From positions 10,633 through 74,632 of the forward strand of contig JAGASR010000004.1 in NCBI GenBank assembly GCA_017621705.1: a stretch of DNA of 64,000 nt. Direction: 5' to 3'. Below the pieces are notes generated by a model, which did not search any database, was not told the origin of the DNA, and saw nothing but the letters and a program-made list of their open reading frames with translations. Both the position numbers and the translations under genes were made by a program. Numbering within the stretch: position 1 is the stretch's first letter; each line of letters begins with the position of its first letter. This DNA comes from Clostridia bacterium. GTDB taxonomy: Bacteria > Bacillota > Clostridia > Oscillospirales > UBA644. This document shows positions 24,681-52,642 of this stretch, piece by piece.

Positions 24681-25103
24681 ATGTTTGTTTACGAAAAGAA
24701 ATTACAGTATCCCATTAATATCAAACGTCCGAATCTGAAACTTGCAAAGATCATCGCAAGTCAGTACGGCGGCCCGAACGGTGAACTCGGCGCTTCGCTC
24801 CGCTATCTCAGCCAACGCTTTGCAATGCCGTATGAAGAACTCAAGGCGGCATTTACGGACATCGGAAATGAAGAACTTTCTCATCTCGAGATGGTGGGCA
24901 CAATCATTTATCAGCTGACGAAAGGTGTCAGCGTCGAGGAAGTCGAAAAGTGCGGCTTTGCAGATTATTTTGTCGATCATACCACGGGCATTTATCCGCA
25001 GAGCGCAGGCGGTACGCCTTTTACTGCCGCCATGATCGCTTCTTCCGGCGACGTCATCGCTGACCTCAGCGAAAATTTGGCTGCCGATGGCACGACCTTG
25101 TAA
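24681..25103 (+). pseudogene. cotJC: cotJC (Mn-catalase family spore coat protein), 5' portion interrupted by the ICE
   Basis: 135 codons of CotJC-like sequence (GELGASLRYL, EELSHLEM) are followed after 25087 by 5 element-derived codons and a stop. Confidence 0.85.
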
Positions 25104-25318
25104 GTGCAACCTTTTTTAAAAAGCTTGAAATCAAGCGGTTTTTTGAAGGTCGCAGACTGTACAAGCTTTCATAGGGTACGATGTTGTAAGGACAACAATG
25201 TTAAAAATACGATAGTACAAGCTGTTTTCACCGTAAACCTTAATGTGACGTTCATAATCGGAACGTCATTTTTTGTTGTTCAAAATCACATAAGAAAAAT
25301 TAAGGGAGTGTGGAATAA

Positions 25319-26215
25319 ATGGCAGTATTTAGAGTTGAAAAGAATAAGGGTTATACGGTTATGAGTAACCATCATTTAAGAAATAAGGAGTTGTCATTAA
25401 AAGCGAAGGGATTACTTTCTCAAATGTTGTCTTTACCGGAAGATTGGGATTATACTCTCGCCGGATTATCTCATATAAACAAGGAAAGTATCGATGCTGT
25501 AAGAACTGCAGTATGGGAACTTGAAAGATTGGGATATATAGAAAGACATCAGGGCAGAGATGAAAAAGGTAAGATGACAGCTATTGAATATATAATCTAT
25601 GAAACACCGAAAAATAAAGAAGAACAGCCGGTGTTGGAAAATCCAACTACGGTTGAACCGATATTGGAAAACCCGGTATTGGAAAATCCAACATCGGATA
25701 ATCCGACATCGGAAAATCCAACGGAAATAAATAAAGATATATTAATTACTGATTTAAAAAATAAAGATAAACAAACTACGTATTCAATTCCCTTCCTTTC
25801 CTTATCTTCAAAGTTTGGGGAAAGGAAAAGAAAGGATGTTGCTACGCAGAGTATTGTTGAAATGTATAAGGAACTAATCAAGGAGAATATTGAGTATGAC
25901 ATATTGTGTCAGGACAGCAATATTGAAAAAGACCGTTTGGATGAAATTGTAGATATTATGATTGAGACAGTATGTACTTCGAGAAAAACAATTCGTATTG
26001 CCGGTGATGATTTCCCGTCTGAACTTGTAAAAAGCAAGTTTATGAAGATTAACAGCTCACATATTCAGTTTGTTTTTGACAGTATGAGAGAGAACACTTC
26101 TAAAATACGTAATATAAAGCAATACATAAAAGCGGTTCTTTTTAATGCTCCGTCAACAATGGGGAATTATTATACAGCTCTTGTAGCTCATGACATGGCA
26201 AGCGGTAAGTTCTGA
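25319..26215 (+). CDS. ICE replication-initiator-like/HTH protein (DUF6017-type)
   Basis: N-terminal winged-helix-like YTVMSNHHLRNKELSLKAKGLLS, an ENPT peptide repeat, and first-gene position in the element. Confidence 0.6.
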   Translation: MAVFRVEKNKGYTVMSNHHLRNKELSLKAKGLLSQMLSLPEDWDYTLAGLSHINKESIDAVRTAVWELERLGYIERHQGRDEKGKMTAIEYIIYETPKNKEEQPVLENPTTVEPILENPVLENPTSDNPTSENPTEINKDILITDLKNKDKQTTYSIPFLSLSSKFGERKRKDVATQSIVEMYKELIKENIEYDILCQDSNIEKDRLDEIVDIMIETVCTSRKTIRIAGDDFPSELVKSKFMKINSSHIQFVFDSMRENTSKIRNIKQYIKAVLFNAPSTMGNYYTALVAHDMASGKF

Positions 26216-26229
26216 AAGGGGGTAGTCCT

Positions 26230-26694
26230 ATGCAAGATGAGGTCAATGAAAAAGTGGTTGCAATATCTGTTAAAGCATCAGGAATAACACTTGAAGTACT
26301 TCAAAAGGCAGTAATAAAACTTCTTCAGGAGATGAAAAAACAAAAAGGAAAAACAAAACACGGAAAACAGACACTTAAACAGCTTATGAAACAGGATGTC
26401 GGTGTTTCGAATATCGAAATAACTGATGGAAATATTAAGGGCTTTACGAGTATAGCAAAAAAATACGGTGTGGATTTCGCACTGAAAAAAGATTCAAGCG
26501 AAAATCCGCCACGTTATTTAGTTTTTTTCAAAGGCAGAGATGCAGATGTTTTAACTGCAGTGTTCAAGGAGTTTTCCGCTATGAAGTTAAAACAAAAGAA
26601 AACTTCTTTACTTGAAACATTAGCCGATGCAAAGGCAGAAGCAAACTTACAGATACCAAAAGAAAAAATAACAGACAGGGGGCTTTCAAGATGA
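26230..26694 (+). CDS. PcfB-family (DUF3801) conjugation accessory protein
   Basis: Size, position directly before the coupling protein, and sequence resemblance by eye. Confidence 0.55.
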   Translation: MQDEVNEKVVAISVKASGITLEVLQKAVIKLLQEMKKQKGKTKHGKQTLKQLMKQDVGVSNIEITDGNIKGFTSIAKKYGVDFALKKDSSENPPRYLVFFKGRDADVLTAVFKEFSAMKLKQKKTSLLETLADAKAEANLQIPKEKITDRGLSR

Positions 26695-28436
26695 AAAAGA
26701 TAATAGTTTTACATCTTCCGTATCTTCTGTTTGTGTATCTTTTCGGAAAACTTTCTCAGTTTGTAAGGCTTATGGAGGGAGACACTGTTACTGAAAAAAT
26801 TCTATCACTTAGTGACGGTAATTCCGCGTTTGATTCATTTGTGCCAAGCATATACCCAACAGATTTATTGATCGGGATAGCCGGTGCTGTAATTATTCGT
26901 GTAATCGTGTATTTGAAAACATTAAATGCAAAGAAGTACAGAAAAGGCGTGGAATACGGTTCTGCTCGTTGGGGGAATGCTCAGGATATAAAACCGTATA
27001 TGGATTCAGAGATTAAAAATAATGTAATACTCACGCAAACCGAAGGACTGATGATGTCAAACCGCCCGAAGAATCCAAAGTATGCAAGAAATAAGAACGT
27101 TTTAGTTGTCGGCGGTAGCGGAAGCGGTAAAACACGTTTCTATGTTAAGCCAAATCTAATGCAAATGCACAGCAGTTATGTTGTGTCAGACCCGAAAGGA
27201 ACTCTTTTAACTGAATGCGGAAAACTGCTTCAAAAAGGCGGTTATGAAATAAAAGTTCTGAATACGGTGAATTTCAAGAAATCTATGAAATACAATCCGC
27301 TTTCATACATAAGGGACGAAAAAGATATTTTGAAACTTGTAAATATACTCATAGAAAACACTAAAGGTATGGGAGAAAAGCAGAATGAAGACTTTTGGGT
27401 AAAAGCTGAAAAACTGTATTATTCGGCTCTTATAGGCTACATCTGGTATGAAGCTCCCGAAAGTGAGAAAAACTTTTCTACACTTCTTGAAATGATAAAT
27501 GCATCGGAAACAAGAGAAGATGATGAAAACTATAAAAATGCAGTAGACATTATGTTTGAACAGCTTGAAGAAAAATCTCCTGAACACTTTGCGGTACGCC
27601 AATATAAAAAATATAAGTTATCCGCAGGTAAGACAGCTAAAAGTATACTTATTTCATGTGGAGCAAGACTTTCACCATTCGATATAAAAGAACTTCGTGA
27701 TTTAATGGAGTATGACGAGCTTGAACTTGATACCTTGGGAGACAGAAAAACAGCATTGTTTATTATAACAAGTGATACAGACAGTACTTTTGATTTTGTG
27801 ACGGCTCTTGTTTGTTCTCAGATGTTTAATACTCTGTGTACAAAGGCAGATGATGTATACGGTGGACGTTTACCCATTCACGTCAGATGTTTACTTGATG
27901 AATTTGCAAATATTAAAATACCTGATATGCAAAGGCTTATAGCTGTTTTAAGAAGTAGAGAAATATCCGCTTCTTTGGTGGTTCAGTCTCAAAGTCAGTT
28001 AAAAGCAGTATATAAAGACCACGCAGATACAATAGTCGGCAACTGTGATTCACTTCTTTTCTTGGGCGGTAAAGAGAAAACAACACTGAAAGAAATCTCT
28101 GAAATCTTAGGAAAAGAAACAATAGACAGTTACAACACAAGCGAAAATAGAGGACGGGAAGTTTCTCACGGTCTTAATTACCAAAAACTCGGGAAGGAGT
28201 TGATGTCACAAGATGAACTTGCGGTTATGGATGGGGTAAAATGTGTTTTACAGATTCGGGGTATAAGACCGTTCTTTTCGGACAAGTACGATATAACAAA
28301 GCACCCGAATTATAAATACTTATCTGACTATGACCCTAAAAACGCTTTTGATATTGAAAAAATGTTGAAACGTAAAAAATCAATAATCAGGCCTGATGAA
28401 GTTTTTGATTATTACAAAATCGACTTGCAGGATTGA
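26691..28436 (+). CDS. Type IV coupling protein (VirD4/TraG family)
   Basis: Two N-terminal TM helices, Walker A VVGGSGSGKT, Walker B-like LLDEFAN. Confidence 0.9.
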   Translation: MKKIIVLHLPYLLFVYLFGKLSQFVRLMEGDTVTEKILSLSDGNSAFDSFVPSIYPTDLLIGIAGAVIIRVIVYLKTLNAKKYRKGVEYGSARWGNAQDIKPYMDSEIKNNVILTQTEGLMMSNRPKNPKYARNKNVLVVGGSGSGKTRFYVKPNLMQMHSSYVVSDPKGTLLTECGKLLQKGGYEIKVLNTVNFKKSMKYNPLSYIRDEKDILKLVNILIENTKGMGEKQNEDFWVKAEKLYYSALIGYIWYEAPESEKNFSTLLEMINASETREDDENYKNAVDIMFEQLEEKSPEHFAVRQYKKYKLSAGKTAKSILISCGARLSPFDIKELRDLMEYDELELDTLGDRKTALFIITSDTDSTFDFVTALVCSQMFNTLCTKADDVYGGRLPIHVRCLLDEFANIKIPDMQRLIAVLRSREISASLVVQSQSQLKAVYKDHADTIVGNCDSLLFLGGKEKTTLKEISEILGKETIDSYNTSENRGREVSHGLNYQKLGKELMSQDELAVMDGVKCVLQIRGIRPFFSDKYDITKHPNYKYLSDYDPKNAFDIEKMLKRKKSIIRPDEVFDYYKIDLQD

Positions 28437-28483
28437 TTATAAATATTATCAAGCCGAAAACGGCAGAAAGAGAGGAAAACGAC

Positions 28484-28702
28484 ATGAGTTTTTTCACTTC
28501 AGCAATCGGAGTATTGCAAACACTTGTAATTGCCTTAGGGGCAGGGCTTGGACTTTGGGGAATTATTAATCTTCTTGAAGGTTACGGCGGAGATAATCCC
28601 TCGGCAAAAAGTCAGGGTATTAAACAGCTTATGGCTGGCGGTGGTGTTGCGCTTATTGGTTCAACGCTGATTCCGCTGTTGACAGGGTTATTCGGTGGGT
28701 AG
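28484..28702 (+). CDS. Maff2-family small membrane protein
   Basis: 72 aa with two TM helices. ATG 28484 has a GAGAGG RBS. The track ORF is extended by 17 codons. Confidence 0.6.
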   Translation: MSFFTSAIGVLQTLVIALGAGLGLWGIINLLEGYGGDNPSAKSQGIKQLMAGGGVALIGSTLIPLLTGLFGG

Positions 28703-28705
28703 CAT

Positions 28706-29575
28706 ATGCAGAATCTTTTTGAGGCAATAACCGAATGGATAAAGGAAAACCTTATAGGAGTAATAAACGGTAATTTATCCAATATGTTCGGTGATGTAAA
28801 TGAGAAAGTCGGAACTATAGCTACTGAAGTAGGTAAGACTCCGCAAGGTTGGAACGTAAGTATATTTTCAATGGTTCAGACCCTATCTGAAAATGTAATT
28901 GTCCCGATAGCCGGAATTATTATTACATATGTTCTTTGCTATGAACTTATCTCGATGATAACGGAAAAGAATAATCTGCACGACCTGGATACATTTATGT
29001 TTTTTAAGTGGTTCTTTAAAGCGTGGGTGGCGGTTTATATCGTTACTCACACTTTTGATATTACAATGGCAGTATTTGAGCTTTCACAAAACATAGTATC
29101 AAAATCCGCAGGGGTAATAAATGTGACAACAAGCATAGATGTAACTTCAGCATTAGCTTCTATGAAGGTCGGACTTGATATGATGGAAGTCCCGGAACTT
29201 TTACTTCTCGTAATGGAAACAGGAATTGTAAGTTTAAGTATGAAAATAATGTCTGTACTTATAACTGTTATACTGTATGGAAGAATGATTGAAATATATC
29301 TGTATTGTTCAATAGCTCCGATACCGTTTGCAACAATAACGAACCGGGAATGGGGACAAATAGGCAGTAATTATTTAAAAAGTCTTTTTGCTCTCGGTTT
29401 TCAGGGTTTCTTGATTATGATTTGCATAGGTATCTACTCCGTACTTGTAAACAGTATGATAATAGCTAATAACTTACACAGTGCAATATTTTCACTTGCT
29501 TCATATACAGTTATTCTGTGCTTTTCTCTGTTTAAGACAGGCTCACTGTCTAAAGCTATTTTTAATGCACATTAA
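28706..29575 (+). CDS. VirB6/TrbL-like polytopic T4SS membrane protein (CD1112-type)
   Basis: About 6 TM helices and the conserved position between the Maff2 and PrgI genes. Confidence 0.6.
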   Translation: MQNLFEAITEWIKENLIGVINGNLSNMFGDVNEKVGTIATEVGKTPQGWNVSIFSMVQTLSENVIVPIAGIIITYVLCYELISMITEKNNLHDLDTFMFFKWFFKAWVAVYIVTHTFDITMAVFELSQNIVSKSAGVINVTTSIDVTSALASMKVGLDMMEVPELLLLVMETGIVSLSMKIMSVLITVILYGRMIEIYLYCSIAPIPFATITNREWGQIGSNYLKSLFALGFQGFLIMICIGIYSVLVNSMIIANNLHSAIFSLASYTVILCFSLFKTGSLSKAIFNAH

Positions 29576-29587
29576 GGAGGTATACTT

Positions 29588-29962
29588 ATGGCATATGTAA
29601 CCGTACCCAAAGATTTAACCAAGGTAAAAACAAAGGTCGTATTTAACCTTACAAAAAGACAGCTTATATTTTTCGGATTGGCGGTAGTTATAGGGCTACC
29701 GCTTTTCTTTTTGCTAAAAGATATTACGGGAACCAATATAGCATCGTTTGTGATGATACTTTCAATGCTCCCCTGTTTTCTTTTCGCAATGTACGAAAAG
29801 CACGGTTTACACTTAGAAACAGTTTTATGGAATATTGTTCAGACTAAGTTTTTAAGACCTAAGATACGTCCATATAAAACAAATAATTTTTACTCAGCTA
29901 TTGAAAAACAAAGGCAACTTAAAATGGAGGTTGATTCAATTGTCAAAGGTAAAAGAAAGTAA
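29588..29962 (+). CDS. PrgI-family T4SS membrane protein
   Basis: 124 aa with two TM helices, immediately upstream of the VirB4 ATPase gene. Confidence 0.6.
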   Translation: MAYVTVPKDLTKVKTKVVFNLTKRQLIFFGLAVVIGLPLFFLLKDITGTNIASFVMILSMLPCFLFAMYEKHGLHLETVLWNIVQTKFLRPKIRPYKTNNFYSAIEKQRQLKMEVDSIVKGKRK

Positions 29963-32330
29963 ACGCAAGCTTACTTTTGAAGAAAAGAATAAAATTAAGG
30001 CGATAATATCAAAAGCTAAAGGTGACGGGAAGAAACGTACAGCACAGCAAAGCATACCGTATTTGCAAATGCATCCTGACGGTGTATGTAAAGTGACGGC
30101 AGATTGTTACAGCAAATGTATACGGTTTGAAGATATCAATTATAAGCTTGTAGGAAATGATGAAAAATCAGCCGTATTTGAAAATTGGTGTGAATTCTTG
30201 AATTACTTTGACCCGTCTGTTTCGGTTCAGTTTTCTTTTGTGAAGCAAGCAAACAAGAATATTGATACGATAATAGATATTCCCCATAAAAATGATATGT
30301 TCAATGATATAAGAGATAACTTTTCCGGAATTCTGAAAACACAGTGTTCAGATGGAAACAACAAAGTGAATAAATTAAGATATATTACTTTTTCAATAGA
30401 GGCTGAAAACCTTGCTTCTGCAAGATCTCGCCTCACTCGTATTGAAAAAGATATACTGAATAGCTTTAAGAAACTTGGGGTTACTGCAGAAGTAATGACA
30501 GGATATGACAGACTTGAAATGCTATATGATATATTTCATTCAAATAAAGAAGAATTTACTTTTTCTTGGGACTACATTTCATCGTCAGGTTTAAGTACAA
30601 AAGATTTTATAGCTCCGTCTTCATTTCGTTTCGGTGAAAGCAGAACATTTTATATGGGAGAAAAAATAGGAAGTGTAAGCTTTCTTGAAATTCTTGCACC
30701 TGAACTTGAAGATACCATGCTTTCCGAAATACTTGACCTTGAAACAGATATGATTGTTAATCTTCATATAAAAAGTATAGACCAGGCAGAAGCAATCAAG
30801 ACTATCAAGCGTAAAATTACAGACCTTGATAAAATGAAAATAGAAGAACAGAAGAAAGCAATTCGTACCGGTTATGATATGGATATCTTACCTTCAGACC
30901 TTGCCACTTTCGGAGTAGAAGCAAAAAAGCTTCTTCAGGACTTACAGAATAAAAATGAAAGAATGTTTTTGCTTACATTCCTTGTTGTGAATACAGCAGG
31001 CAATAAACGGAAACTGAATAATGATGTATTTGCAGTATCAGGCATTGCCAATAAATATAACTGTTCATTGATACGTCTTGACTATCAACAAGAGGACGGT
31101 TTAATGTCAAGCCTGCCTCTTGGAAAGAATTATATTCCTATTCAAAGGGGTATGACTACATCAAGTACGGCAATATTCGTTCCGTTTATAACGCAGGAAC
31201 TTTTTCAAAGAGGAGAAGCAATATACTATGGCTTAAATTCTGTTTCAAACAATATGATAATGTGCGACAGGAAGAACTTAAAAAATCCGAACGGTTTGAT
31301 TTTAGGTACACCGGGAAGCGGAAAATCCTTTTCTGCAAAGAGGGAGATAACGAACGCATTCTTAGTGACGGACGATGACATTATAATCTGCGATCCTGAA
31401 GCTGAATACTATCCGTTAGTGAAAAGGCTGAAAGGACAGGTGATAACTTTATCTCCAACGGGTAAAGGACAAAACGGTGAAGTTCAGTATATAAACCCGA
31501 TGGATATCAACTTGAATTATTCAGATGATAATAATCCGGTAGCACTGAAAAGTGATTTTATACTTTCGCTTTGTGAACTTATAGTTGGAGGCAAAGAAGG
31601 GCTTCAGCCAATAGAAAAGACGGTTATAGACCGTTGCGTAAAGAATATCTATAACAAGTATTTTATTGACCCGAACCCTTCAAATATGCCGATACTTCAA
31701 GACTTATATGAAGACCTGTTAATACAGCCTGAACCGGAAGCTTTAAGAATTGCTTCGGCACTGGAGCTTTATGTTTCAGGGAGTCTTAATATATTTAATC
31801 ATCGTACAAATGTTGAGTTGAATAACAGGCTCGTATGTTTCGATATAAAGCAACTTGGAAAGCAGCTAAAAAAGATAGGGATGCTTATTGTTCAAGATCA
31901 GGTATGGAATAGGGTGACAACCAATAGGGCAGAAAAGAAAGCAACAAGATATTACATAGATGAGTTTCATTTACTGTTAAAAGATGAACAAACTTCTGCA
32001 TACAGTGTTGAGATATGGAAGCGGTTTAGAAAATGGGGAGGAATACCGACCGCCATAACACAGAATGTCAAAGACCTTTTAGCAAGCAGAGAGATAGAAA
32101 ATATTTTTGATAACAGCGATTTTATCTTAATGTTAAATCAGGCATCAGGTGACAGGGAAATACTTTCAAAACAACTGAATATTTCACCGAACCAACAGAA
32201 ATATATAACCAATTCAGCAGCCGGTGAAGGACTTCTTTTCTATGGTAATGTTATCCTGCCGTTTGTTGACCGTTTTCCCAAAGATACGGAACTGTATAGG
32301 ATAATGACAACTAAACCCAATGAAGTGTAA
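29940..32330 (+). CDS. VirB4-like conjugal transfer ATPase
   Basis: Walker A GTPGSGKS and Walker B YYIDEFH. TTG 29940 lies 9 nt after GGAGG. The track ORF starts at TTG 29901. Confidence 0.9.
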   Translation: MSKVKESKRKLTFEEKNKIKAIISKAKGDGKKRTAQQSIPYLQMHPDGVCKVTADCYSKCIRFEDINYKLVGNDEKSAVFENWCEFLNYFDPSVSVQFSFVKQANKNIDTIIDIPHKNDMFNDIRDNFSGILKTQCSDGNNKVNKLRYITFSIEAENLASARSRLTRIEKDILNSFKKLGVTAEVMTGYDRLEMLYDIFHSNKEEFTFSWDYISSSGLSTKDFIAPSSFRFGESRTFYMGEKIGSVSFLEILAPELEDTMLSEILDLETDMIVNLHIKSIDQAEAIKTIKRKITDLDKMKIEEQKKAIRTGYDMDILPSDLATFGVEAKKLLQDLQNKNERMFLLTFLVVNTAGNKRKLNNDVFAVSGIANKYNCSLIRLDYQQEDGLMSSLPLGKNYIPIQRGMTTSSTAIFVPFITQELFQRGEAIYYGLNSVSNNMIMCDRKNLKNPNGLILGTPGSGKSFSAKREITNAFLVTDDDIIICDPEAEYYPLVKRLKGQVITLSPTGKGQNGEVQYINPMDINLNYSDDNNPVALKSDFILSLCELIVGGKEGLQPIEKTVIDRCVKNIYNKYFIDPNPSNMPILQDLYEDLLIQPEPEALRIASALELYVSGSLNIFNHRTNVELNNRLVCFDIKQLGKQLKKIGMLIVQDQVWNRVTTNRAEKKATRYYIDEFHLLLKDEQTSAYSVEIWKRFRKWGGIPTAITQNVKDLLASREIENIFDNSDFILMLNQASGDREILSKQLNISPNQQKYITNSAAGEGLLFYGNVILPFVDRFPKDTELYRIMTTKPNEV

Positions 32331-32350
32331 TCTTTTATCTTGTATAAAAA

Positions 32351-32390
32351 ACAACCACACATTAATTCTCATCTAAATAATGTGTGGTTG
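32351..32390. terminator. Bidirectional terminator hairpin between convergent genes
   Basis: acaaccacac / tgtgtggttg 10-bp stem with A/T runs on both sides. Confidence 0.65.
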
Positions 32391-32394
32391 TAAT

Positions 32395-33027
32395 TTAGTT
32401 AATTAGCTCAGATATATCACATTTTAATGCCTTTGCAAGTCTTGTTACAATGTCGAATTGAGCCTTGTTTAAGTCTTTACTTTTTCTCTCATATGCTTTT
32501 ATGGTATTAAGTGAAACGCCTGATTCGTTTGCAAGTTATTCTTGAGTTAATCCGCAATGCTTTCTTATGATTTTCAGTTTGCTTTCACTTGAGGCAAAAT
32601 GGGAATCCAGTACTTCATAGCTTTTTTGAATATCCGCTTCGTGAAGAGTTGCATAAAGCCCTATAAGTTCATCATATGGAATAGTATCAAGTATGGACTT
32701 GAATGTTCTGCCCGAATACCATTGATAGTGCGTAAGCATCCACCCCACCCAATACTCAGGGCTTCGGTCATAGCTTTCTATAAGCTCGGCATGGTATGCT
32801 TTATCTGAAGTTTTTTCCATAACTTCGAGGAATAGCTCGATACCGCTTTTCCCTGCAATATATTTGGGATTTCCGTTTTCAAACTGCTCTGCAATATCGG
32901 ATTGAATAAAACGGTTTAAAAAGTCTATACCGTTAATACCGAATTCACAGACAGCATTGTGTAGCATATTCCCAACAGTTCTGGAAGCTTTATTCAGATA
33001 TAATTGACTGTAAGCGTGGGTCGTCAT
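32395..33027 (-). pseudogene. DUF3791-like protein fused to a C-terminal XRE-type HTH, interrupted by an in-frame TAA
   Basis: The frame reads ...KIIRKHCGLTQE-TAA-LANESGVSLNTIKAYERKSKDLNKAQFDIVTRLAKALKCDISELIN-stop. The TAA (32536-38) sits where XRE HTH domains normally have Glu (LTQEELA). Confidence 0.7.
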
Positions 33028-33691
33028 ATTTCATATCCTCCCTTATAATGTCGAGAACAAAAATATCGTCCATAAGTTGTTCTAAATTCTTTTTCTTGTT
33101 GGAATAATCAACTCTTGCGTTTTTATCTCTTTCAGCTCTTTTATAATAGTATTTGCGGTAATCCGCAACCTCATACTCGATAAATTCGATTTGACTGAAG
33201 GAACGTTCAGAAAGTAATACCACTTGCTCTCCGAGAGTTCCAAGTTTCATTGCAAAGTTTAAGTCTCGCAGGGAAATTGTATTATTCACAAAATCTTCAG
33301 CAAAAGAAAAATATGAATCGTCCGCACGGTAGCCAATCATAATGTCAACATCTTTTGTATTTGGCGTAAAACGTGAGATTATGAAATCTCTTGCGTTGTA
33401 ACCGATAGGTGATGTGATGTCAAACTTTCTATGAGAGAGAAGAATTGCAAGCCAGTTGAGAATATTAAACTCACCCTTAGTTAAATGCATTATATTCATT
33501 CCATCAAGTGATAGACGGTATTTGTTGGAATATCCGTCATTTTTAATGGGACAAGCCCATTCTTTGGCAAGTTCAATATTTTCAGTACAGTAGAATCCCT
33601 GACCATAGTCATTATATGGCTTTCCTATACCGTACTTAGGAACTTCAACAATTTGTTGAGAACCGTGATATATGATTAATTCTTGTTTCAT
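32990..33691 (-). CDS. DUF3990-family protein
   Basis: N-terminal IYHGSQQIVE...YGQGFYCTENIELAKEWA pattern typical of DUF3990. Overlaps the downstream DUF3791-like gene by 38 nt. Confidence 0.65.
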   Translation of the reverse strand: MKQELIIYHGSQQIVEVPKYGIGKPYNDYGQGFYCTENIELAKEWACPIKNDGYSNKYRLSLDGMNIMHLTKGEFNILNWLAILLSHRKFDITSPIGYNARDFIISRFTPNTKDVDIMIGYRADDSYFSFAEDFVNNTISLRDLNFAMKLGTLGEQVVLLSERSFSQIEFIEYEVADYRKYYYKRAERDKNARVDYSNKKKNLEQLMDDIFVLDIIREDMKYDDPRLQSIISE

Positions 33692-33705
33692 ATGGCACCT
33701 CCGTT

Positions 33706-33756
33706 GTAATACCGTGGTATTACTTTAATTATATTATAATACTGTAGTATTACTTT
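33706..33756 (-). promoter_or_regulatory. Two dyad-symmetric operator-like sites overlapping a TATAAT -10 element
   Basis: GTAATACCGTGGTATTACTTT (33706-26) and ATAATACTGTAGTATTACTTT (33736-56), 30 bp apart. A minus-strand TATAAT lies at 33738-33733. The region is directly upstream of the RBS and ATG at 33691. Confidence 0.6.
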
Positions 33757-33938: not shown

Positions 33939-34997
33939 ATGCAAACAAAAAATAATGTAAAAAAGAAGTCACGGCTTCGCTTCCCGACAGATGAAGTAAA
34001 TATGTATCTTCATAGCAGGTTCCATGAAAATGAAGATGATAATTCTTCTGTTGAAGCCTTTAATAAAAGTCAGGAAGTCCTATATTTCGGAACTTCGCCT
34101 GTGTTAAAGTATTCACGGGAATATCAATATAATGAACGACTTAAGCACCGGAATTCTGAAGATCAAAATACCGAAACTTCAAAATCTGACGAAGAGTATT
34201 CATATCATATCAGGGACAAGCCAACAGAAGAATCAAGAAATAAGCAAATACAGAAAAAACAAATAAAGAAACAGTATGTCAAGCAGGCGAGGGAAAGAAT
34301 AAAAGAAACAGCTCAAAAAGTATGGGCTGCTACAAAAGAAACAACAAGAAAGACCGATTCCTTTGTAGTCAAGCATTGGAAAGTAATAGCTGTTATTTTC
34401 TTAATCTTACTTGTTCTTACCATATTGTTTTCTGCTTTGATATCTGTACTTGCAGTCTTTTCAAGTTCGTTCTCGTCTGTTGTCGGCAGTACATATATTT
34501 CAGCAGATAATGAGATAATCAGTGCAGAAAATAAATATATACAACTCGAAGAAGATCTACAGAGAGAAATAGATAATGTAGAAAATACATACGGGGGTTA
34601 CGATGAATATGTCTACGATATAGATGAAATAAAGCATGACCCATATATCCTTACATCTATATTATCAGCTATGTATTTAGAGTATTCAGTAGAAGATATT
34701 CAAAATACACTAAAAATGCTGTTTGATAAGCAATATATATTTATGGTTACCTCACATATTGAAATAAGATATAAAACGGAAACAAGAACAGTAACATATA
34801 CGGATTCAGAAACAGGAGAAGTAAATGTAAAAACATATGAAGTTGAAGTTCCGTATGAATATAAAATATTGAATGTCAGTCTTCAGAATATAGGACTTCA
34901 AAATCTTGCTGTAGAAGTCCTAACTTCAGAGCAGTATTCAATGTACGAACTGTATATGGCAACACTCGGAAACAGACCTGATTTGTTTTCAGAATAA
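33939..34997 (+). CDS. CD1108-type mobile-element membrane protein, N-terminal portion only (no cell-wall hydrolase domain)
   Basis: Charged N-terminus, one TM helix, then the ...YELYMATLGNRPDLF segment. The ORF stops where relatives (as I recall them) continue into lysozyme/NlpC-P60 domains. Confidence 0.5.
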   Translation: MQTKNNVKKKSRLRFPTDEVNMYLHSRFHENEDDNSSVEAFNKSQEVLYFGTSPVLKYSREYQYNERLKHRNSEDQNTETSKSDEEYSYHIRDKPTEESRNKQIQKKQIKKQYVKQARERIKETAQKVWAATKETTRKTDSFVVKHWKVIAVIFLILLVLTILFSALISVLAVFSSSFSSVVGSTYISADNEIISAENKYIQLEEDLQREIDNVENTYGGYDEYVYDIDEIKHDPYILTSILSAMYLEYSVEDIQNTLKMLFDKQYIFMVTSHIEIRYKTETRTVTYTDSETGEVNVKTYEVEVPYEYKILNVSLQNIGLQNLAVEVLTSEQYSMYELYMATLGNRPDLFSE

Positions 34998-35052: not shown

Positions 35053-35310
35053 ATGGCGAAAAACAAGATAACACGTATAGAACAGGAAATAGCGATAGTC
35101 AAAGAAAAAATAACTGAATATCAAAACAAGTTAAAAGAACTTGAACTAAAGAAAACTGAAATAGAAAACCTTCAGATAGTACAAACAGTACGTGCGTTAA
35201 AGCTTACTCCTCAGGAACTAAGTAAACTTCTTTCAAAAGGTGGAATTCCAGGTATAAAAACAGTTTCTTTCAATAAGCCTGAAAAGGAGGAAACAGCCGA
35301 TGAGAAGTAA
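35053..35310 (+). CDS. DUF4315-type coiled-coil protein
   Basis: 85-aa heptad-rich protein at the conserved position in this ICE family. Confidence 0.5.
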
Positions 35311-35926
35311 ATCTTTTTATTTGTTTACCTTTATATCCATACTTTTTATTATGATAATCTTCATTCCGGTTTCTGCATCAGCAAGCGATGGTGGAGATTT
35401 GGATATATATGAAACAAAACCTCTTACACCTGAAGGTAATATGTGCCTCGTAGATGATATTGACGGAGAAGAAGCAAGCGATAAGCAGTTTATAACCGTC
35501 GTTACCAGAAACGGGGCTTATTTTTATATCATCATAGACCGAGCTGAAGACGGAGAAAATACCGTGCATTTTCTCAACCAGGTGGATGAATCCGACTTGC
35601 TGAAGCTTATAGACGAGGAAGAAATAGAACCCCTTATATGTATCTGTAAGGATAAATGTATTATAGGGGATATAAATGCGAACTGTTCTGCTTGTATGAT
35701 ATCAATTAATGACTGTATTGGTGAAGTTAAAGAGACAGAACCTGATAAAGAAAATAATTCTTCGATAGGACTTGTGATATTTACGTTTGTTCTGATTCTT
35801 GGCGGTGGAGCAGTTTTCTATTACTTTAAGATATATAAGCCAAAACAAGAAGAGAATTTCATAGACGAAGAAGACGAATATGAGGAGTATGAAAACGATG
35901 ATGGAAATGAAGATATTGTTTTATAG
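35300..35926 (+). CDS. DUF4366/CD1107-type surface-anchored membrane protein
   Basis: Signal peptide, the [18 protein letters not shown] segment, a C-terminal TM helix and an acidic tail. Confidence 0.55.
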
Positions 35927-36024
35927 TGCGTGAAAAATAAAAGTAGGGAAATCCTTAGTCTTTTCAATTTGAAAAGGTAAGGATTTTCTTGCTTTATACT
36001 TAAACATTGAGAGGAGATTTTTTT

Positions 36025-37236
36025 ATGAGTGATGTATTTAGACCGAAACCCGATGAGGAAATTAATCATCTTAATACTAAAGAGGAAACTAAGACCGTAT
36101 CTGTAAACCCAATAAATCTTACTTCCGAAAATTCAATGGATAAACTGAAGGAAATCACGGATAAGTTGGAGCAGGGTATCAAAGATATTTTTAACAGCGA
36201 CAAGTATAAAGAATACCTGAAAGTAATGTCAAGGTTTCATAATTACAGTTGGGGTAATTCATTGCTTATAGCAATGCAGAAGCCTGATGCTTCATATGTT
36301 GCCGGATATACAGCATGGCAGAACAAGTTTAAGAGAACCGTACTTAAAGGTGAAAAGGGAATTAAAATCATAGCTCCGTCTCCGTATAAAGTTAAACTTG
36401 AAAGTTACAAATTAGACCCTATAACAAATGAAAAGCTGTTGGATAAGGACGGAAAACCAATAGTTGAAGTGAAAGAGAAAAGTATTCCATCATTCAAAGT
36501 AGTATCGGTTTTTGATGTGTCTCAAACTGAAGGGAAGGAACTTCCGGATATAACAGTAGATATGTTGACCGGGACTGTCGAGAATTTTAATGATATATAT
36601 TCTTCAATAGAATCAATTTCACCCGTACCGATTACACTTGAACCGTTAAAAAAAGATTTATACGGATATTTCAGTCATATTGAAAAACGAATAGTTGTTA
36701 ATGACAGGTTAAGCGAATTGCATACCTTAAAAACAATGATACACGAACTGGCTCATGCCAAACTGCACGGTAAGGAACCTGATGTACCAAAGGATGAAAA
36801 ACAAGATTTACCTGACAAAAGAACAAGAGAAGTTGAAGCTGAAAGTGTTGCATATACGGTATGTAATCATTTCGGTCTTGATACTTCAGATTATTCATTC
36901 GGTTATATCGCCGGATGGAGCAGTAACAAAGAACTGAATGAACTTAAGAAATCTGTTGACAGGATTTGTACAACTTCAGCTGAAATAATAAACGGAATAG
37001 AGGATATGTATTCCGAAATTCAAAAGCAGAAGAATGCTGAAATAGTCAATGAAAATAATCTTTCAGTAAATGAGAGGATTGAACGAGGTGAAGTTGTTTC
37101 AATTATGGATATGATACAGGAAGTAGCTGATGCTTCAAAGAAGCCATCTATCCGCAAACAGTTGAATTCTGAAAAGCAGAAAATATCGCAAACTCAAACA
37201 CAAACCAAAAACAAGAAACAGGACTTGGAGGTATAG
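36025..37236 (+). CDS. ArdC-like antirestriction/ssDNA-binding protein with HExxH metalloprotease domain
   Basis: N-terminal YSWGNSLLIAMQKPDASYVAGYTAWQ (ArdC_N-like) and HELAHAKLH. ATG 36025 follows GAGAGGAG. Confidence 0.75.
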   Translation: MSDVFRPKPDEEINHLNTKEETKTVSVNPINLTSENSMDKLKEITDKLEQGIKDIFNSDKYKEYLKVMSRFHNYSWGNSLLIAMQKPDASYVAGYTAWQNKFKRTVLKGEKGIKIIAPSPYKVKLESYKLDPITNEKLLDKDGKPIVEVKEKSIPSFKVVSVFDVSQTEGKELPDITVDMLTGTVENFNDIYSSIESISPVPITLEPLKKDLYGYFSHIEKRIVVNDRLSELHTLKTMIHELAHAKLHGKEPDVPKDEKQDLPDKRTREVEAESVAYTVCNHFGLDTSDYSFGYIAGWSSNKELNELKKSVDRICTTSAEIINGIEDMYSEIQKQKNAEIVNENNLSVNERIERGEVVSIMDMIQEVADASKKPSIRKQLNSEKQKISQTQTQTKNKKQDLEV

Positions 37237-37238
37237 CC

Positions 37239-37442
37239 ATGAGAGAATTTACAATCGAAGAAGAAAATTTACTGTGTTTCTTTAAGAAGGACAGTAAGGA
37301 AGCGACAATACAAAATATAAAGGTAACAATACCGTTTATGGAAGAAGATATGCAACAAATAGCATATACAACATTGGATAAACTTGATAACATGAATGAA
37401 ATAGAGTTTTCAAAACTTGAATTATATCCGATAGAAGAATAA
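37239..37442 (+). CDS. Transposon-transfer-assisting-type small protein
   Basis: 67 aa with the FTIEEENLLCFF... pattern. Recognised by eye only. Confidence 0.45.
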   Translation: MREFTIEEENLLCFFKKDSKEATIQNIKVTIPFMEEDMQQIAYTTLDKLDNMNEIEFSKLELYPIEE

Positions 37443-38842: not shown

Positions 38843-39132
38843 ATCTCTTTTAATGCCTCCTTTATTTCAATTAAATCTTTGTTTGAAACAATGCCGTTAA
38901 TGTTTACTTTGTGCGCTATCTGATTGATATTTACACCGATTTTGTGAATCTCATAAGTCATAGATTTTATATTGCTGTGGTCTACTTGAACGATATAACC
39001 GTCAATGGCAATCTTCCGTATATATGCAGACATATTATCTGTTGGAATAAGTTTCATCTTTTCTTCTATAAGAGATTTTTCTTCTTTGTTTACCCAGAAT
39101 TTAATCTGAATATTTCTTTTACGTCCGTTCAT
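38803..39132 (-). CDS. MobC-family relaxosome accessory protein
   Basis: 109 aa with a ribbon-helix-helix-like N-terminus and ...INQIAHKVN.... Overlaps the relaxase start. Confidence 0.8.
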   Translation of the reverse strand: MNGRKRNIQIKFWVNKEEKSLIEEKMKLIPTDNMSAYIRKIAIDGYIVQVDHSNIKSMTYEIHKIGVNINQIAHKVNINGIVSNKDLIEIKEALKEIWRLQRLSLLKER

Positions 39133-47230: not shown

Positions 47231-47247
47231 GGATGTGATATACTGTT

Positions 47248-48306: not shown

Positions 48307-48325
48307 ATATAAGGAGTACAACAAA

Positions 48326-49339: not shown

Positions 49340-49376
49340 CAATATCTATTAAAAATAAGCGTAAATAAACCAACAT

Positions 49377-49417
49377 AAGCATCGGGTACGAAAAATACCC
49401 GATGCTTTAAATTTTTT
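49377..49417 (+). terminator. Intrinsic terminator closing the cargo operon
   Basis: 12-bp stem aagcatcgggta / tacccgatgctt followed by a T-rich tail. Confidence 0.8.
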
Positions 49418-49516
49418 ATAAAACTATGCAACAAATCGACCTCTTTCGTGCGGATAGTTAGGTGAAAGGGAAAATCAAAGTCATTTGATTTCTATTATGG
49501 AGGGAGGTGTGAAATA

Positions 49517-49954
49517 GTGGAACCATCTTCTTCCGATAAGGAAACAATACAACATCAGTTTGATGCTTTTGCAAAGAAGAACCTTAAAGGTGAGGCTAGG
49601 AGTCTCTTTCGTGAACTGTATAAGCGCAGAAATAACGAAGTCTGTTTTTCTGATATGAGTGAAACGGAACTTAACGAGCTATATTGTTACGATGAGTATG
49701 ACCTGGCGCAGTACACCTTTAAGGTTCTTGGCTATGATGTAAATATAAAAGATGACCTTTTGGGCGAAGCATTGGAACTTCTGCCTGAGCGAAAGAGGGA
49801 TATTGTACTTATGTCATATTATCTTGAATTGAGTGATGCAGAGATTGGGAAAATGCTGAATGTTGTTCGCAGTACGGTGTTTCGAAACAGAAAGACCGCA
49901 CTTTCAAAAATTAAAAAGTATATGGAGGGAAATAAGACGGATGATGAATCGTAG
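49517..49954 (+). CDS. ICE-encoded sigma-70 family (ECF-like) sigma factor
   Basis: Region 4 HTH LSDAEIGKMLNVVRSTVFRNRKTALSKI. GTG start after GGAGGGAGG. Confidence 0.75.
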   Translation: MEPSSSDKETIQHQFDAFAKKNLKGEARSLFRELYKRRNNEVCFSDMSETELNELYCYDEYDLAQYTFKVLGYDVNIKDDLLGEALELLPERKRDIVLMSYYLELSDAEIGKMLNVVRSTVFRNRKTALSKIKKYMEGNKTDDES

Positions 49955-50180
49955 AAAAACTAACACTCTGTTGCCGTTCCCTGTAATTGCGGAGGCAACA
50001 AAAGGTAATGTTGATGCTTTATGCAAAGTTCTCGACCATTACGACGGGTATATAACGAAACTGTGTGTCCGCACTGTAAAGGATGATAAGGGTTGTTCGT
50101 ATTCTGTTGTTGATGAGGAAATGAGAAATAAACTCAGAGTACGGCTTATAATGAGAACTTTAGCTTTTCAGATAAGGTAG
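49941..50180 (+). CDS. Small helix-turn-helix/sigma-accessory protein
   Basis: 79-aa ORF from ATG 49941 (GGAGGGA RBS), overlapping the sigma gene end. This pairing is typical of Tn916-like regulatory modules, as I recall them. Confidence 0.5.
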   Translation: MMNRRKTNTLLPFPVIAEATKGNVDALCKVLDHYDGYITKLCVRTVKDDKGCSYSVVDEEMRNKLRVRLIMRTLAFQIR

Positions 50181-50644
50181 TTTAACATCAACTTAAGGTT
50201 GCAGTCTATTCCCTTTCCTGTGTCTTTAAGGATATTGAGAAGCATATTAGCGTAAGTTGATATGCTTTTCACATATAAAAAGAAAGCGATACAAGATAAC
50301 GGTATCGCAGTATAAAAATAATCGGAAACGTTCTTTTGCATTGAGCCGTAAGGAAAGTACGCCGAGACGTTGAACACCAACAGAGCGAGAAATACGAGCC
50401 TTAAAACAGATGTGGCAATCTGTCAGCGAAGATGATGTAAAAGTATAATGATACTCCTTTACAGCCATAGTTCGAGCGTTAAAAGCGTCGCAAACGATGG
50501 GTAGAGCTATATGAGAACCATATAGGGGTGAGATTCCCGTGAGGTCGAGCCAACGACCGTCCGGTTAGATATTTGTAAGTCCGAATAATGGACTTGCCAT
50601 TTTTCATATAAGTGTATTAGCTATATTGAAAGGAGGCTATACAT

Positions 50645-50794
50645 TTGGAAAAAAAAGATATATCCAAAGAAATATGTAGGAGTATTTTTAAAGGCGGCGA
50701 AAATACAACTACAAAAAGCCGATTTACAAAAAAGTGGATTGAGCTTATAAACATAATAGAAAAAGGCAAAAGTTTAAACTTTACAGGAAAATGA
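50645..50794 (+). CDS. Candidate 49-aa basic protein upstream of the recombinase
   Basis: TTG start 8 nt after GAAAGGAGG. Translation: MEKKDISKEICRSIFKGGENTTTKSRFTKKWIELINIIEKGKSLNFTGK. Not in the track because it is shorter than 60 aa. Confidence 0.4.
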   Translation: MEKKDISKEICRSIFKGGENTTTKSRFTKKWIELINIIEKGKSLNFTGK

Positions 50795-50822
50795 TGACAA
50801 GCGGTTTCGTCTGTGTTATAAT
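50794..50822 (+). promoter_or_regulatory. Sigma-A-type promoter for the large serine recombinase
   Basis: ATGACA, a 17-nt spacer ending in TGT, then TATAAT (50817-22). Lies ~40 nt upstream of AAGGAG and the ATG at 50865. Confidence 0.6.
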
Positions 50823-50864
50823 TTACAAGGAAACAGCTTGTTCTATCTCTAAGGAGATGTTAAT

Positions 50865-52421
50865 ATGAAAGTAGCTATTTATTGCCGCTTATCTGAAGAA
50901 GATAGACACAAGTTATCTGAAAATGATGATAGCAATAGCATTCAAAATCAAAAAGCAATGCTTACTCAATATTCAAATGATAAGGGTTGGGAGATTTTTG
51001 ATATTTACAGCGATGATGATTATACCGGTTCTGACAGAAACAGACCTGAATTTAACCGTTTACTTGAAGATGCTAAAAACGGCAGATTCGACATCATCTT
51101 ATGTAAGACACAGTCAAGATTCACTCGTGAATTAGAGTTGGTTGAAAAGTACATACATGGTTTATTTCCTTTGTGGGGGATAAGGTTTGTAAGTATTGTA
51201 GACAATGCCGATACGGATGTTAAGGGAAATAAAAAATCCCGTCAAATCAACGGACTTGTTAATGAATGGTATCTTGAAGACATGTCTGAAAATATCAGAA
51301 GTGTTTTGACAAACAGGCGTAAAAACGGATTTCATATCGGTGCGTTTGCTTTGTATGGTTATAAAAAAGACCCAAATCAGAAGGGACATTTGATTATTGA
51401 TGAAGAAGCTGCTACTGTGGTTCGTGAAGTCTTTAATTTATTTGTTCAAGGCTACGGAAAAACAGTTATTGCACGTATGTTGAATGATAGGGGGATACCA
51501 AATCCGACAGAGTACAAAAGATTAAAGGGGCTGCGATATCAACAACCCAAAAGGAAAAACAGTACTTTGTGGAAATATTCTGCGATTTCCGATATGCTGA
51601 TAAACGAGATTTATATCGGTAATATGGTTCAAGGGAAATACGGCAGTATTTCTTATAAAACTAAAATTAATAAGCCAAGACCAAGAAGTCAATGGTATAT
51701 TGTTGAAGGTACACATGAACCGATTATCGATAGAGAACTTTGGGACAGAGTTCAAGTTTTGGTTAAAGAACGGGCAAAACCTTTTGATACAGGAGAAGTT
51801 GGTTTATTTGCAAGGAAAGTCAGATGTGCTTATTGCGGTTATACGATGAGGTCTACAAAAAACGCTACCGGATTAAGAGCATTTAAATGCTCGAATAGGC
51901 ATGTTTCAAGGGATTCTTGTATCGGTTCTTATATTTCGCTGAATCGCTTGGAGGGCTATATTCTTAAAGAACTTAACCGGTTAGCTTCTGAATATTTGGA
52001 TAAAGACGAGGCTGAACAGAATATTGAGTTTTGCAATAATCTTAAGGAACAAAAATCAATTTTATCTTCGGATATTGAAATTTATCAAAAGAAGCTTGAA
52101 GATTGTACAAAAGGGCTCAGAGATATATATCTGGATAAAGTAAAAGGAATAATTTCTGAGTCGGATTTTATTGACCTATCCAAAGATTTCTCTGCTGAAA
52201 AAGAAAGGTTATCACATATTATTGCTGAAAATGAAAAGAAGCTTCTTGAAATAGATGATAAAATTTTGCTTGGGGATAACCGTAGAGAGATAATTGAAAG
52301 TTATGCGAATCTAGAGCATTTAAATCGGGAAATTGTTGAATTATTAATTGATCACATTAAGGTTTATAGACGTATTCCGGGTACTAAAGAAGTACCTGTT
52401 GAAATTCATTGGAATTTCTAG
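50865..52421 (+). CDS. Large serine recombinase (TndX/TnpX/SpoIVCA class)
   Basis: Catalytic motif AIYCRLSEED, a recombinase domain, a zinc ribbon CAYCGY...FKCSNRH, and a C-terminal coiled coil. The stop lies 27 bp from the element end. Confidence 0.93.
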   Translation: MKVAIYCRLSEEDRHKLSENDDSNSIQNQKAMLTQYSNDKGWEIFDIYSDDDYTGSDRNRPEFNRLLEDAKNGRFDIILCKTQSRFTRELELVEKYIHGLFPLWGIRFVSIVDNADTDVKGNKKSRQINGLVNEWYLEDMSENIRSVLTNRRKNGFHIGAFALYGYKKDPNQKGHLIIDEEAATVVREVFNLFVQGYGKTVIARMLNDRGIPNPTEYKRLKGLRYQQPKRKNSTLWKYSAISDMLINEIYIGNMVQGKYGSISYKTKINKPRPRSQWYIVEGTHEPIIDRELWDRVQVLVKERAKPFDTGEVGLFARKVRCAYCGYTMRSTKNATGLRAFKCSNRHVSRDSCIGSYISLNRLEGYILKELNRLASEYLDKDEAEQNIEFCNNLKEQKSILSSDIEIYQKKLEDCTKGLRDIYLDKVKGIISESDFIDLSKDFSAEKERLSHIIAENEKKLLEIDDKILLGDNRREIIESYANLEHLNREIVELLIDHIKVYRRIPGTKEVPVEIHWNF

Positions 52422-52449
52422 TTTGCTGTTCTTATGCAATCGCACCAGA

Positions 52450-52642
52450 ACAGAAAGCGCGCCTCGTTTACGATAACATCCTCCGCTTTGCCGATGATGC
52501 GGATGTCCGCGACCCGATACGTTTTCTCCGCGCCCGCGAAATTGTGCATTATCAGAGATTCGGCGAATGTTTAAGAATAGCGCAGGATAGGCTTAATTGC
52601 AAGAATTTCTATGCGATAAATCCTTCTTTTGATAAAAAGTAG
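52450..52642 (+). pseudogene. cotJC: cotJC 3' portion (last 63 codons plus the third base of the split Glu codon)
   Basis: ...(E)QKARLVYDNILRFADDADVRDPIRFLRAREIVHYQRF... continues the Mn-catalase/CotJC family sequence in frame with 24681-25087. Confidence 0.85.

Follow-up and report, generated by a model that had tools for sequence, protein, structure and literature searches.

A predicted conjugative element within a metal-ligand codon of the spore-coat gene cotJC, and a TndX-like recombinase clade that appears dedicated to this site

The window considered here is a stretch of 64,000 nucleotides from a Clostridia bacterium (Oscillospirales; UBA644; assembly GCA_017621705.1, contig JAGASR010000004.1), in which the spore-coat gene cotJC is split by an integrative conjugative element (ICE). 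Strand exchange took place at the GA of codon 136, two metal ligands of CotJC are thereby removed, and precise excision would bring the gene back, so that the insertion can be regarded as securely reversible in structure, as far as the DNA reveals. Judged by its gene content, the insert is a CTn4/Tn1549-like ICE with a large serine recombinase (LSR) resembling TndX. This enzyme belongs to a clade (at least ~67% identity) that, on the evidence of its junctions, is dedicated to one site of cotJC across Oscillospiraceae, Lachnospiraceae, and relatives. The best overall explanation, held to be somewhat probable, combines insertion by a dedicated LSR with two regimes of excision, one in growing cells and one in the mother cell of sporulation.

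Read without splicing, cotJC starts with an ATG at 24681 and stays in frame up to 25087, after which five foreign codons and a stop follow (D-G-T-T-L-stop), as had been described in a sequence-only reading of the same stretch. This truncated product of 140 amino acids ends at 25103 and is probably all that cotJC yields in the integrated state, devoid of Glu136 and His169. The same frame resumes at 52450, behind the 518-residue LSR; the earlier reading located this point correctly and misjudged only the spacing, since not 27 bp but 26 nt plus the GA follow the LSR stop codon. GA is present at both junctions (25086-87 and 52448-49), and an in-silico join of 24681-25087 with 52450-52642 gives 600 nt, i.e. 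199 codons and a stop, reading ...SENLAAEQKARLVYDNI... in frame. By alignment, the joined open reading frame (ORF) is a colinear Mn-catalase/CotJC protein, as the sequence-only reading had expected. It matches Pfam Mn_catalase over residues 1-183 (6.4e-51), and aligns gap-free through the junction with Anabaena Alr3090 (6J42) and with the Mn catalase of Lactobacillus plantarum (1JKU). Against 81 CotJC loci of other genomes, no gap interrupts the alignment of residues 1-199, and AAEQKAR is the same throughout. E35, E65, H68, E136, and H169 of the joined ORF fall on Glu35, Glu66, His69, Glu148, and His181 of 1JKU, which are presumably its five metal ligands. The earlier suggestions that the split glutamate is a metal ligand and that the histidine of the REIVH motif is lost with it agree with this alignment.

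The genomic surroundings are those of a cotJA-cotJB-cotJC operon, with cotJA and cotJB recognized by Pfam directly 5' of the split gene. In Bacillus subtilis, cotJB and cotJC belong to the sigma-E regulon, and in Clostridioides difficile the cotJB2-cotD operon is under sigma-K control (PMC3789822). By analogy with these two species, cotJC is assumed to be expressed in the mother cell; inspection of the region upstream of cotJA by eye gave no convincing sigma-E or sigma-K match. Alleles of cotJC in the species group share 94-98% of their nucleotides and differ by only 1-3 amino acids. So few residue changes at a DNA divergence of 2-6% indicate strong purifying selection rather than a dispensable relic.

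The empty target is documented by nature. Seven contigs of the same species (L170-L176) carry an uninterrupted cotJC next to a left flank that is 96-98% identical to the window, and blastn comparison places the breakpoints at 25087 and 52448, with a 2-bp overlap consisting of GA. The same breakpoints were found in an empty site of a more distant species (L004, ~80% nucleotide identity). These related genomes bear out the empty site foreseen by the sequence-only reading, with breakpoints exactly at GA, and the sequence of the same-species sites is exactly that obtained after in-silico excision. GA is the sole sequence common to attL, attR, and the empty site, which fits the 2-bp crossover of a serine recombinase; the reaction being conservative, excision would restore the intact 199-codon cotJC. 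Each of the two junctions was also obtained in assemblies made independently from other samples, three at 100% and one at 97.7% (L169). A further carrier strain has a flank that diverges by ~3%, while its element differs by only ~1% over the 643 bp that can be compared; the 11 changes in its cotJC 5' half are all synonymous. As some strains of the species carry the ICE and others show the empty site, occupancy is polymorphic.

The element has a GC content of 34.6%, compared with 43-45% in its flanks. Its ends match as inverted repeats at 10 of 17 positions, as had been counted before, and the similarity extends to 14 of 23. An end motif, GTTGTTCTTAT...CCA, is kept across the recombinase family, and left ends related to the attL arm of the window occur in the loci L132 and L163. 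Two of the empty-site contigs (L170 and L171) possess a mosaic cotJC, in which the 5' 407 nt are 96-97% and the 3' 193 nt 88% identical to the window. The switch in divergence lies between nt 397 and 438, with the crossover core at nt 406-407. Its interpretation as a footprint of past occupancy was rejected, since the boundary is only confined to this interval and the switch is absent from L173-L176.

The LSR aligns with residues 2-518 to residues 11-528 of TndX (30.4% identity, E 1e-74). Its target preference was followed in a panel of the 80 closest LSR relatives (73-79% identity), one for each of 80 species, including Lachnospiraceae, Oscillospiraceae, Anaerotignum, Roseburia, Blautia, Anaerotruncus, Flintibacter, and others. 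In 78 of the 80, a cotJC fragment cut at the same codon adjoins the recombinase gene. Most of these (57 of 78) show the arrangement of the window, in which the element end GTTGTTCTTATATGATTGCA[GC]CA is followed by GA and then by [AG]CA[AG]AA[AG]GC. Another 20 are inverted; here the same end leads into TC and then into the cotJC 5' half in reverse complement, where TC, seen on the recombinase strand, is the same cotJC GA read from the other strand. In the one remaining case the LSR is situated at the opposite element end. A strict pattern of the commonest junction retrieved 90 species genomes, a minimum, given that even the arm of the window does not fit the pattern. Cultured carriers of family members include Roseburia faecis JCM 17581 (inverted type), Anaerotruncus colihominis JM4-15, Anaerotignum lactatifermentans DSM 14214, and Flintibacter muris DSM 110149, in addition to the Parablautia strain treated below. 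A relative of 67.6% identity still resides in cotJC, and those of 41-42% are found elsewhere. The view of the sequence-only reading that an ICE in cotJC is unusual is overturned by these counts. Most LSRs with a DUF4368 domain are transposase-like, and this domain is present in only 0.73% of site-specific LSRs; the site choice of the present clade is not of this relaxed, multi-target kind.

The two panel members without a cotJC junction (L084, 1565-1610; L136, 4571-4618) run from the right end through a core of GA or TC into an inverted arm resembling a left end. Such joints could be attP of a metagenome-assembled circular form or belong to a tandem array; L136 comes from the same metagenome-assembled genome as L119, where an integrated junction is seen. 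Carriers range in size from the 27-kb ICE of the window down to a 4.6-kb mini-element in Parablautia intestinalis. In the latter (strain D8-82, L132, 1-7551), cotJC holds a tandem of two units. The first is the mini-element of 4.56 kb with intact recombinase, the small ORF o49, and the sigma-E-type motif described below, devoid of transfer genes; the second, a remnant of 2.6 kb, contains a recombinase broken into pieces and the gene of a type IV prepilin peptidase. Their internal joint looks like attP, and the attR of a resident element resembles attB (GCAGCAGA), which may permit accretion.

Among 50,697 phage records no close relative of the LSR was found, the best being 42% identical, and plasmid records contained none except for a Subdoligranulum fragment. 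This 'plasmid' (OY725852.1) was rejected as a circular excised form, as it comprises the LSR with a 3' piece of cotJC behind it. A full-text literature search yielded no paper characterizing a cotJC interruption. The sole trace was a second-hand citation: a preprint refers to Abe et al. (2013) for cotJC as a frequent target of phage- and transposon-related integrations.

Codon 136 is not the only place at which cotJC is broken. In about a quarter of the relatives the retained cotJC fragment shows a second break, located after FQRFGE (~residue 175; L113, L116, L121, L134, L141, L142, L148), before GGPDGE (~residue 28-30; L091, L103, L115, L130, L161), or before TEELAH (~residue 58-62; L118, L119, L150, L159, L162). 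Eight adjacent ORFs covering all three extra sites were assigned by Pfam, and all eight are LSRs of other clades lacking DUF4368, a count to which L091, L130, L118, L119, and L159 do not contribute. Each of the four sites coincides with a metal-ligand residue or is only a few codons away from one, in the part of the gene whose DNA is best conserved. A small ORF or a sigma-E-type motif similar to that of the window was not consistently present upstream of the unrelated LSRs at these other places in cotJC. From the crossover up to the breakpoint of a second element or the natural stop, the retained cotJC segments at the 78 loci are in frame and stop-free. This fits recent insertion as well as selection for a rebuildable gene and cannot separate the two. 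Downstream of the split gene in the window, the cotJC tail (..AQDRLNCKNFYAINPSFDKK) is repeated with a period of 85 within 52580-52852, and the empty-site strains and L004 have such copies too. These copies start just after the FQRFGE hot spot and may therefore be relics of earlier elements inserted there. For C. difficile R20291, the literature describes the phi027 prophage as a neighbor of CDR20291_1465 / cotG, which encodes a CotJC-like Mn catalase, so that a further mobile element is associated with a gene of the cotJC family.

The right end of the element is organized as a regulatory module, in the order sigma-like gene, HTH_16 gene, pemK RNA motif, the 49-amino-acid ORF termed o49, and recombinase. 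The pemK RNA motif occupies the same position in 10 of 19 relatives and is also located 5' of tndX (L272); together with the terminator-like hairpin that follows, it looks like a general module part of these serine-recombinase conjugative elements. Rfam detected no pemK motif in L132 or L116, and Pfam no sigma-type domain in the ORFs of the L132 element. o49 has tblastn matches in 74 of the 80 relatives and no family match in Pfam, NCBIfam, or PHROGs. By position and conservation it is a candidate accessory or directionality factor.

About 30-45 nt 5' of o49 lies a motif that reads TAATAGT-N15-CATATAGT in most members and GAATAAT-N15-CATATAAG in the window. It corresponds to the signature of sigma-E promoters, described as ATA at -35 and CATA... 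at -10 (PMC3789822). Of 65 unique family sequences, 47 carry ATA-N17-CATA at a constant distance 5' of o49, compared with a background of 0.03 per 120 nt. It is kept where the spacer differs between sublineages, and persists in the Parablautia mini-element and its relatives. A scan of the whole ICE with sigma-E and sigma-K patterns gave counts at or below shuffle expectation, and only the match before o49 gained meaning, through its conservation in the family; the same sigma-E motif, run for calibration on the host genes of the window, produced no matches.

The recombinase itself is preceded by a sigma-A-type promoter that matches 11 of 12 consensus positions, has an extended -10, and is kept across the family. 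It is embedded in a hairpin whose 5' arm contains the -35 and whose loop contains TATAAT; the 3' arm belongs to the 5' untranslated region. An alignment of 33 relatives revealed compensatory changes in 10 of the 15 pairs of this hairpin. Candidate roles include processing or attenuation of read-through RNA, an operator, and a single-strand promoter active early after transfer. The promoter recognized by the sequence-only reading is thus real and conserved; as an argument against mother-cell control it does not stand, because the recombinases of two sporulation-coupled elements, CD1231 and SprA, are likewise sigma-A driven (PMC5025042, PMC4191935).

Components that define an ICE, namely a relaxase, a coupling protein, a VirB4 ATPase, and a VirB6-like channel protein, are present in the element (Table 1). 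Its transfer genes resemble those of CTn4/Tn1549: VirB4 is a CD1110 equivalog and is accompanied by CD1107, CD1108, TrbL_2, PrgI, Maff2, DUF3801, VirD4, and MobA/VirD2 proteins. It differs from these elements in its integration module, which is the cotJC-specific LSR, and in that no cell-wall hydrolase domain was recognized in the element ORFs scanned. The earlier designation as a full ICE holds for the four defining components and carries a caveat, as does transfer proficiency, with respect to the hydrolase; the element may depend on a helper for transfer. Between the VirB4 and CD1108-family genes, two ORFs of opposite orientation (32536-33691, minus strand) encode a 163-residue protein without known family and a 233-residue DUF3990 protein.

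Table 1. Features of the split cotJC locus, the ICE, and its attachment sites (positions refer to the 64,000-nucleotide window)
Feature	Position	Strand	Basis or remark
cotJA	24154-24426	+	Pfam CotJA 1.1e-18
cotJB	24423-24668	+	Pfam CotJB 4.6e-28
cotJC 5' part, codons 1-135 and GA of codon 136	24681-25087	+	tblastn, residues 1-136 at 99%
attL	25064-25110		cotJC half-site, crossover GA (25086-87), arm TGGCACGACCTTGTAAGTGCAAC (25088-25110); empty-site breakpoints
Integrative conjugative element	25088-52449	+	27,362 bp including one GA; 34.6% GC
DUF6017/HTH_36 protein	25319-26215	+	Pfam
DUF3801 protein	26230-26694	+	Pfam
VirD4 coupling protein	26691-28436	+	Pfam
Maff2 protein	28433-28702	+	Pfam
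TrbL/VirB6-like protein	28706-29575	+	Pfam
PrgI protein	29588-29962	+	Pfam
VirB4, CD1110 family	29901-32330	+	NCBIfam conju_CD1110, 1088 bits vs cut-off 325
CD1108-family protein	33939-34997	+	
DUF4315 protein	35053-35310	+	
CD1107-like protein	35300-35926	+	
ArdC-N/M78 anti-restriction-like protein	36007-37236	+	
TTRAP protein	37239-37442	+	
MobA/VirD2-type relaxase	37511-38842	-	Pfam and NCBIfam relaxase matches
MobC/NikA-like accessory protein	38803-39132	-	Pfam
Small serine resolvase, 212 aa	39345-39983	+	Pfam Resolvase 6.6e-24
Cargo: BspA-type leucine-rich-repeat / GLUG surface protein, 2141 aa	40805-47230	+	Pfam LRR_5 3.2e-112
Sigma-70 region-4 protein	49517-49954	+	Pfam
HTH_16 protein	49860-50180	+	Pfam
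Sigma-A-like promoter	50420-50449	+	runs into pemK RNA motif
pemK RNA motif RF02913	50445-50542	+	Rfam, 58.7 bits vs gathering 34.8
Terminator-like hairpin and T-run	50575-50597	+	overlaps sigma-E-type motif
Sigma-E-type motif	50575-50612 (region)	+	ATA (50585-87), 17 nt, CATATAAG (50605-12)
o49, conserved 49-aa ORF	50645-50794	+	...CRSIFKGGENTT..KKWIELINIIEK...
LSR sigma-A promoter	50794-50842	+	ATGACA-17-TGtTATAAT in conserved hairpin (50796-50842)
LSR, 518 aa, TndX-like	50865-52421	+	Pfam Resolvase, Recombinase, Zn_ribbon, DUF4368
attR	52425-52471		arm GCTGTTCTTATGCAATCGCACCA (52425-47), crossover GA (52448-49), cotJC half-site
cotJC 3' part, codon 136 (GA+A) to stop	52448-52642	+	frame resumes at 52450; tblastn
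Two degenerate tandem copies of the last ~20-28 cotJC codons	52641-52724, 52802-52852	+	outside the ICE
attB (rebuilt cotJC junction)			TTGGCTGCCGAACAGAAAGCG
attP (element joint)			CAATCGCACCAGATGGCACGACC

The closest characterized counterpart of the integration module is Tn5397 of C. difficile, likewise a conjugative element with a DUF4368 LSR at its end, a GA crossover, and a target in a conserved coding motif. TndX is described to require a central GA in all cases, to prefer a conserved coding sequence for a Fic domain, and to suffice for integration and excision (PMC4430133), and the GA crossover named in the sequence-only reading is in line with this description. The order of sigma-like gene, HTH gene, pemK-like RNA, small ORF, promoter, and recombinase is also found in Tn5397 (L272). 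Unlike in the window, the recombinase of Tn5397 (30% identical) is directed to the Fic-domain gene instead of cotJC, and its transfer genes are Tn916-like, whereas those of the window belong to the CD1107, CD1108, and CD1110 families. In addition, the homologous module of Tn5397, with its non-sporulation target, does not contain ATA-N17-CATA before the small ORF.

Three of the features that characterize the sporulation intervening elements skin, SPbeta, vfbin, vrin, gin, and skinCd are present as well: a split cotJC, an LSR beside the junction, and a gene that excision would rebuild. In skinCd, which splits the mother-cell gene sigK, the LSR at the element end (CD1231) is produced constitutively from a sigma-A promoter, with inverted repeats around its +1 position, and the 72-residue sigma-E-dependent factor CD1234 sets the timing of excision (Serrano et al., PMC5025042). 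Unlike the ICE, skinCd is a defective, prophage-like, non-conjugative element with another target gene, and its directionality factor is proven by experiment, whereas such a role of o49 is only inferred. SPbeta, a mobile element that splits the mother-cell gene spsM of B. subtilis, is still active. Its sprA is sigma-A driven, and the 58-residue SprB is expressed by read-through upon induction and from a mother-cell promoter of its own (PMC4191935). This promoter, ~20 nt before the sprB start codon, parallels the succession of promoter, pemK RNA, hairpin, sigma-E-like motif, and o49 in the window. In contrast to the ICE, SPbeta is a phage with a recombinase lacking DUF4368, and its system is experimentally established. 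The gin element in gerE of Bacillus cereus (GirC and GirX) is a minimal non-phage element with little more than its recombinase module and thereby comparable to the 4.6-kb mini-element of L132, although its recombinase belongs to another clade, its target is a different gene, and no self-transfer is known for it.

A TndX-like LSR inserted the ICE by strand exchange at the GA of codon 136, i.e. in the codon for the manganese ligand Glu136, and the following course of events is proposed from there on. The LSR is supposed to be made constitutively from its conserved sigma-A promoter, being needed for integration after transfer. Two inputs would act upstream: a vegetative one, leading from the first sigma-A-like promoter through the pemK RNA motif and the terminator-like hairpin to o49, and a mother-cell one, starting at the sigma-E-type promoter (ATA-N17-CATA...) immediately before o49. 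Both would feed o49 and, by read-through, probably also the LSR. In vegetative cells excision would be rare and serve conjugation, while in the mother cell it would be efficient and rebuild cotJC for coat assembly; the forespore would keep the element. This logic corresponds to that of the sprB-sprA pair of SPbeta and the CD1234-CD1231 pair of skinCd. The conserved sigma-E-type motif before o49, in conjunction with these precedents, is the reason why the two-input model is favored, and a coupling of excision to sporulation is considered plausible, with about an even chance of being correct. A wider proposition is more tentative and rather doubtful at present: cotJC as a developmental landing pad with four hot spots, where ICEs and mini-elements of the dedicated LSR clade, equipped with a two-input switch (a vegetative, RNA-gated input and a sigma-E promoter), leave the chromosome of the terminal mother cell, so that the coat catalase gene is rebuilt there, and are inherited via the spore.

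Several points weigh against this model. Excision is a prediction from sequence, and no contig on record encodes exactly the CotJC that would be rebuilt in the strain of the window, the best homologue being 99% identical. Where a second LSR element has broken cotJC, rebuilding would require several excisions. The 47 of 65 family sequences bearing the motif are related and do not represent 47 independent events. The -10 of the window (CATATAAG) misses the final consensus T, and one sublineage of 12 loci has CTA in place of ATA at -35. Since the -35 and the spacer overlap the hairpin and part of the spacer is itself conserved, the motif could be an RNA or protein-binding element instead of a promoter. 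The positional counterpart of o49 in Tn5397, taken together with the self-sufficiency of TndX, implies that o49 need not be a directionality factor. In this respect, work by Wang and Mullany from 2000, cited after PMC4430133, reportedly found TndX alone sufficient for excision. Finally, cotJ mutants of B. subtilis are reported to lack an apparent defect (PMC12122855).

The strongest alternative, a possibility somewhat short of an even chance, regards cotJC solely as a safe harbor. Excision would then serve conjugation, spores of carriers would lack CotJC or use a paralogue, and ATA-N17-CATA would not be a sporulation promoter. The region around Glu136, near-invariant among spore-forming Clostridia, would provide a broad host range, and a gene that is silent during growth and dispensable would keep the cost of insertion low. 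The lack of an obvious defect in B. subtilis cotJ mutants agrees with this, as do the location of all four breakpoints at the most conserved metal-ligand motifs, the tolerance of double and triple interruptions of cotJC, and insertion in both orientations. So do the conserved sigma-A-type promoter of the LSR, the mostly transposase-like nature of DUF4368 recombinases, and TndX itself, the closest characterized relative, which targets a non-sporulation gene without an accessory factor. However, a safe harbor does not account well for a sigma-E-type motif that is fixed before o49 and the LSR, kept in mini-elements, and absent from Tn5397, nor for the strong purifying selection on cotJC in the species group and the stop-free halves in the retained segments. 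Moreover, four unrelated LSR clades have settled on one mother-cell gene, which fits the known bias of LSR elements towards mother-cell sporulation genes (PMC4191935, PMC5595907).

A fixed, immobile remnant, which no longer excises or transfers and has left cotJC as a pseudogene of the lineage, is highly unlikely. It could be invoked for the lack of a recognized peptidoglycan hydrolase gene in the transfer region, the two reverse ORFs between the VirB4 (CD1110-family) and CD1108-family genes, and the missing record of a rebuilt allele of the exact strain. Yet the LSR ORF, the two arms, o49, and the two promoters have all stayed intact and conform to the consensus of the family, neither half of cotJC is damaged, and nearly the same ICE (99% over 643 bp) is found in the ~3%-diverged flank while other strains are empty. 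An assembly chimera joining cotJC halves and ICE, conceivable for a window taken from a metagenome scaffold, is extremely improbable and can be considered excluded by the same junctions in L165, L166, L168, and L169 from other sequencing runs and by the same junction architecture in isolate genomes of other species.

Two already known kinds of element meet in this locus, namely LSR elements that sit in mother-cell sporulation genes and conjugative elements of the TndX type that are directed to conserved motifs of coding sequences. Beyond the first reading of the window, the analysis adds the scale of the phenomenon, insertion in both orientations, the four-site pattern of cotJC, and the sigma-E-type motif. 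Spores carry many gut anaerobes between hosts, and an element residing in a spore-coat gene of more than 100 species is inherited with every spore; if it leaves in the mother cell, this would be at no cost to the spore. Should the model of mother-cell excision prove true, the principle of skin and SPbeta would no longer be confined to defective prophages in model organisms but would take in conjugative elements active in the gut microbiota of humans and animals. For the first time, a self-transmissible conjugative element would be shown to act as a sporulation intervening element, and one could ask whether mother cells serve as conjugation donors, too. The locus would further provide a DUF4368 recombinase of natural origin and high site specificity, whose 40-50 bp target is conserved across families. 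Cultured gut strains allow a direct test of whether the excision of a conjugative element is coupled to sporulation. Without such coupling, cotJC would still be a clear, conserved 'safe harbor' that shapes the host range of ICEs.

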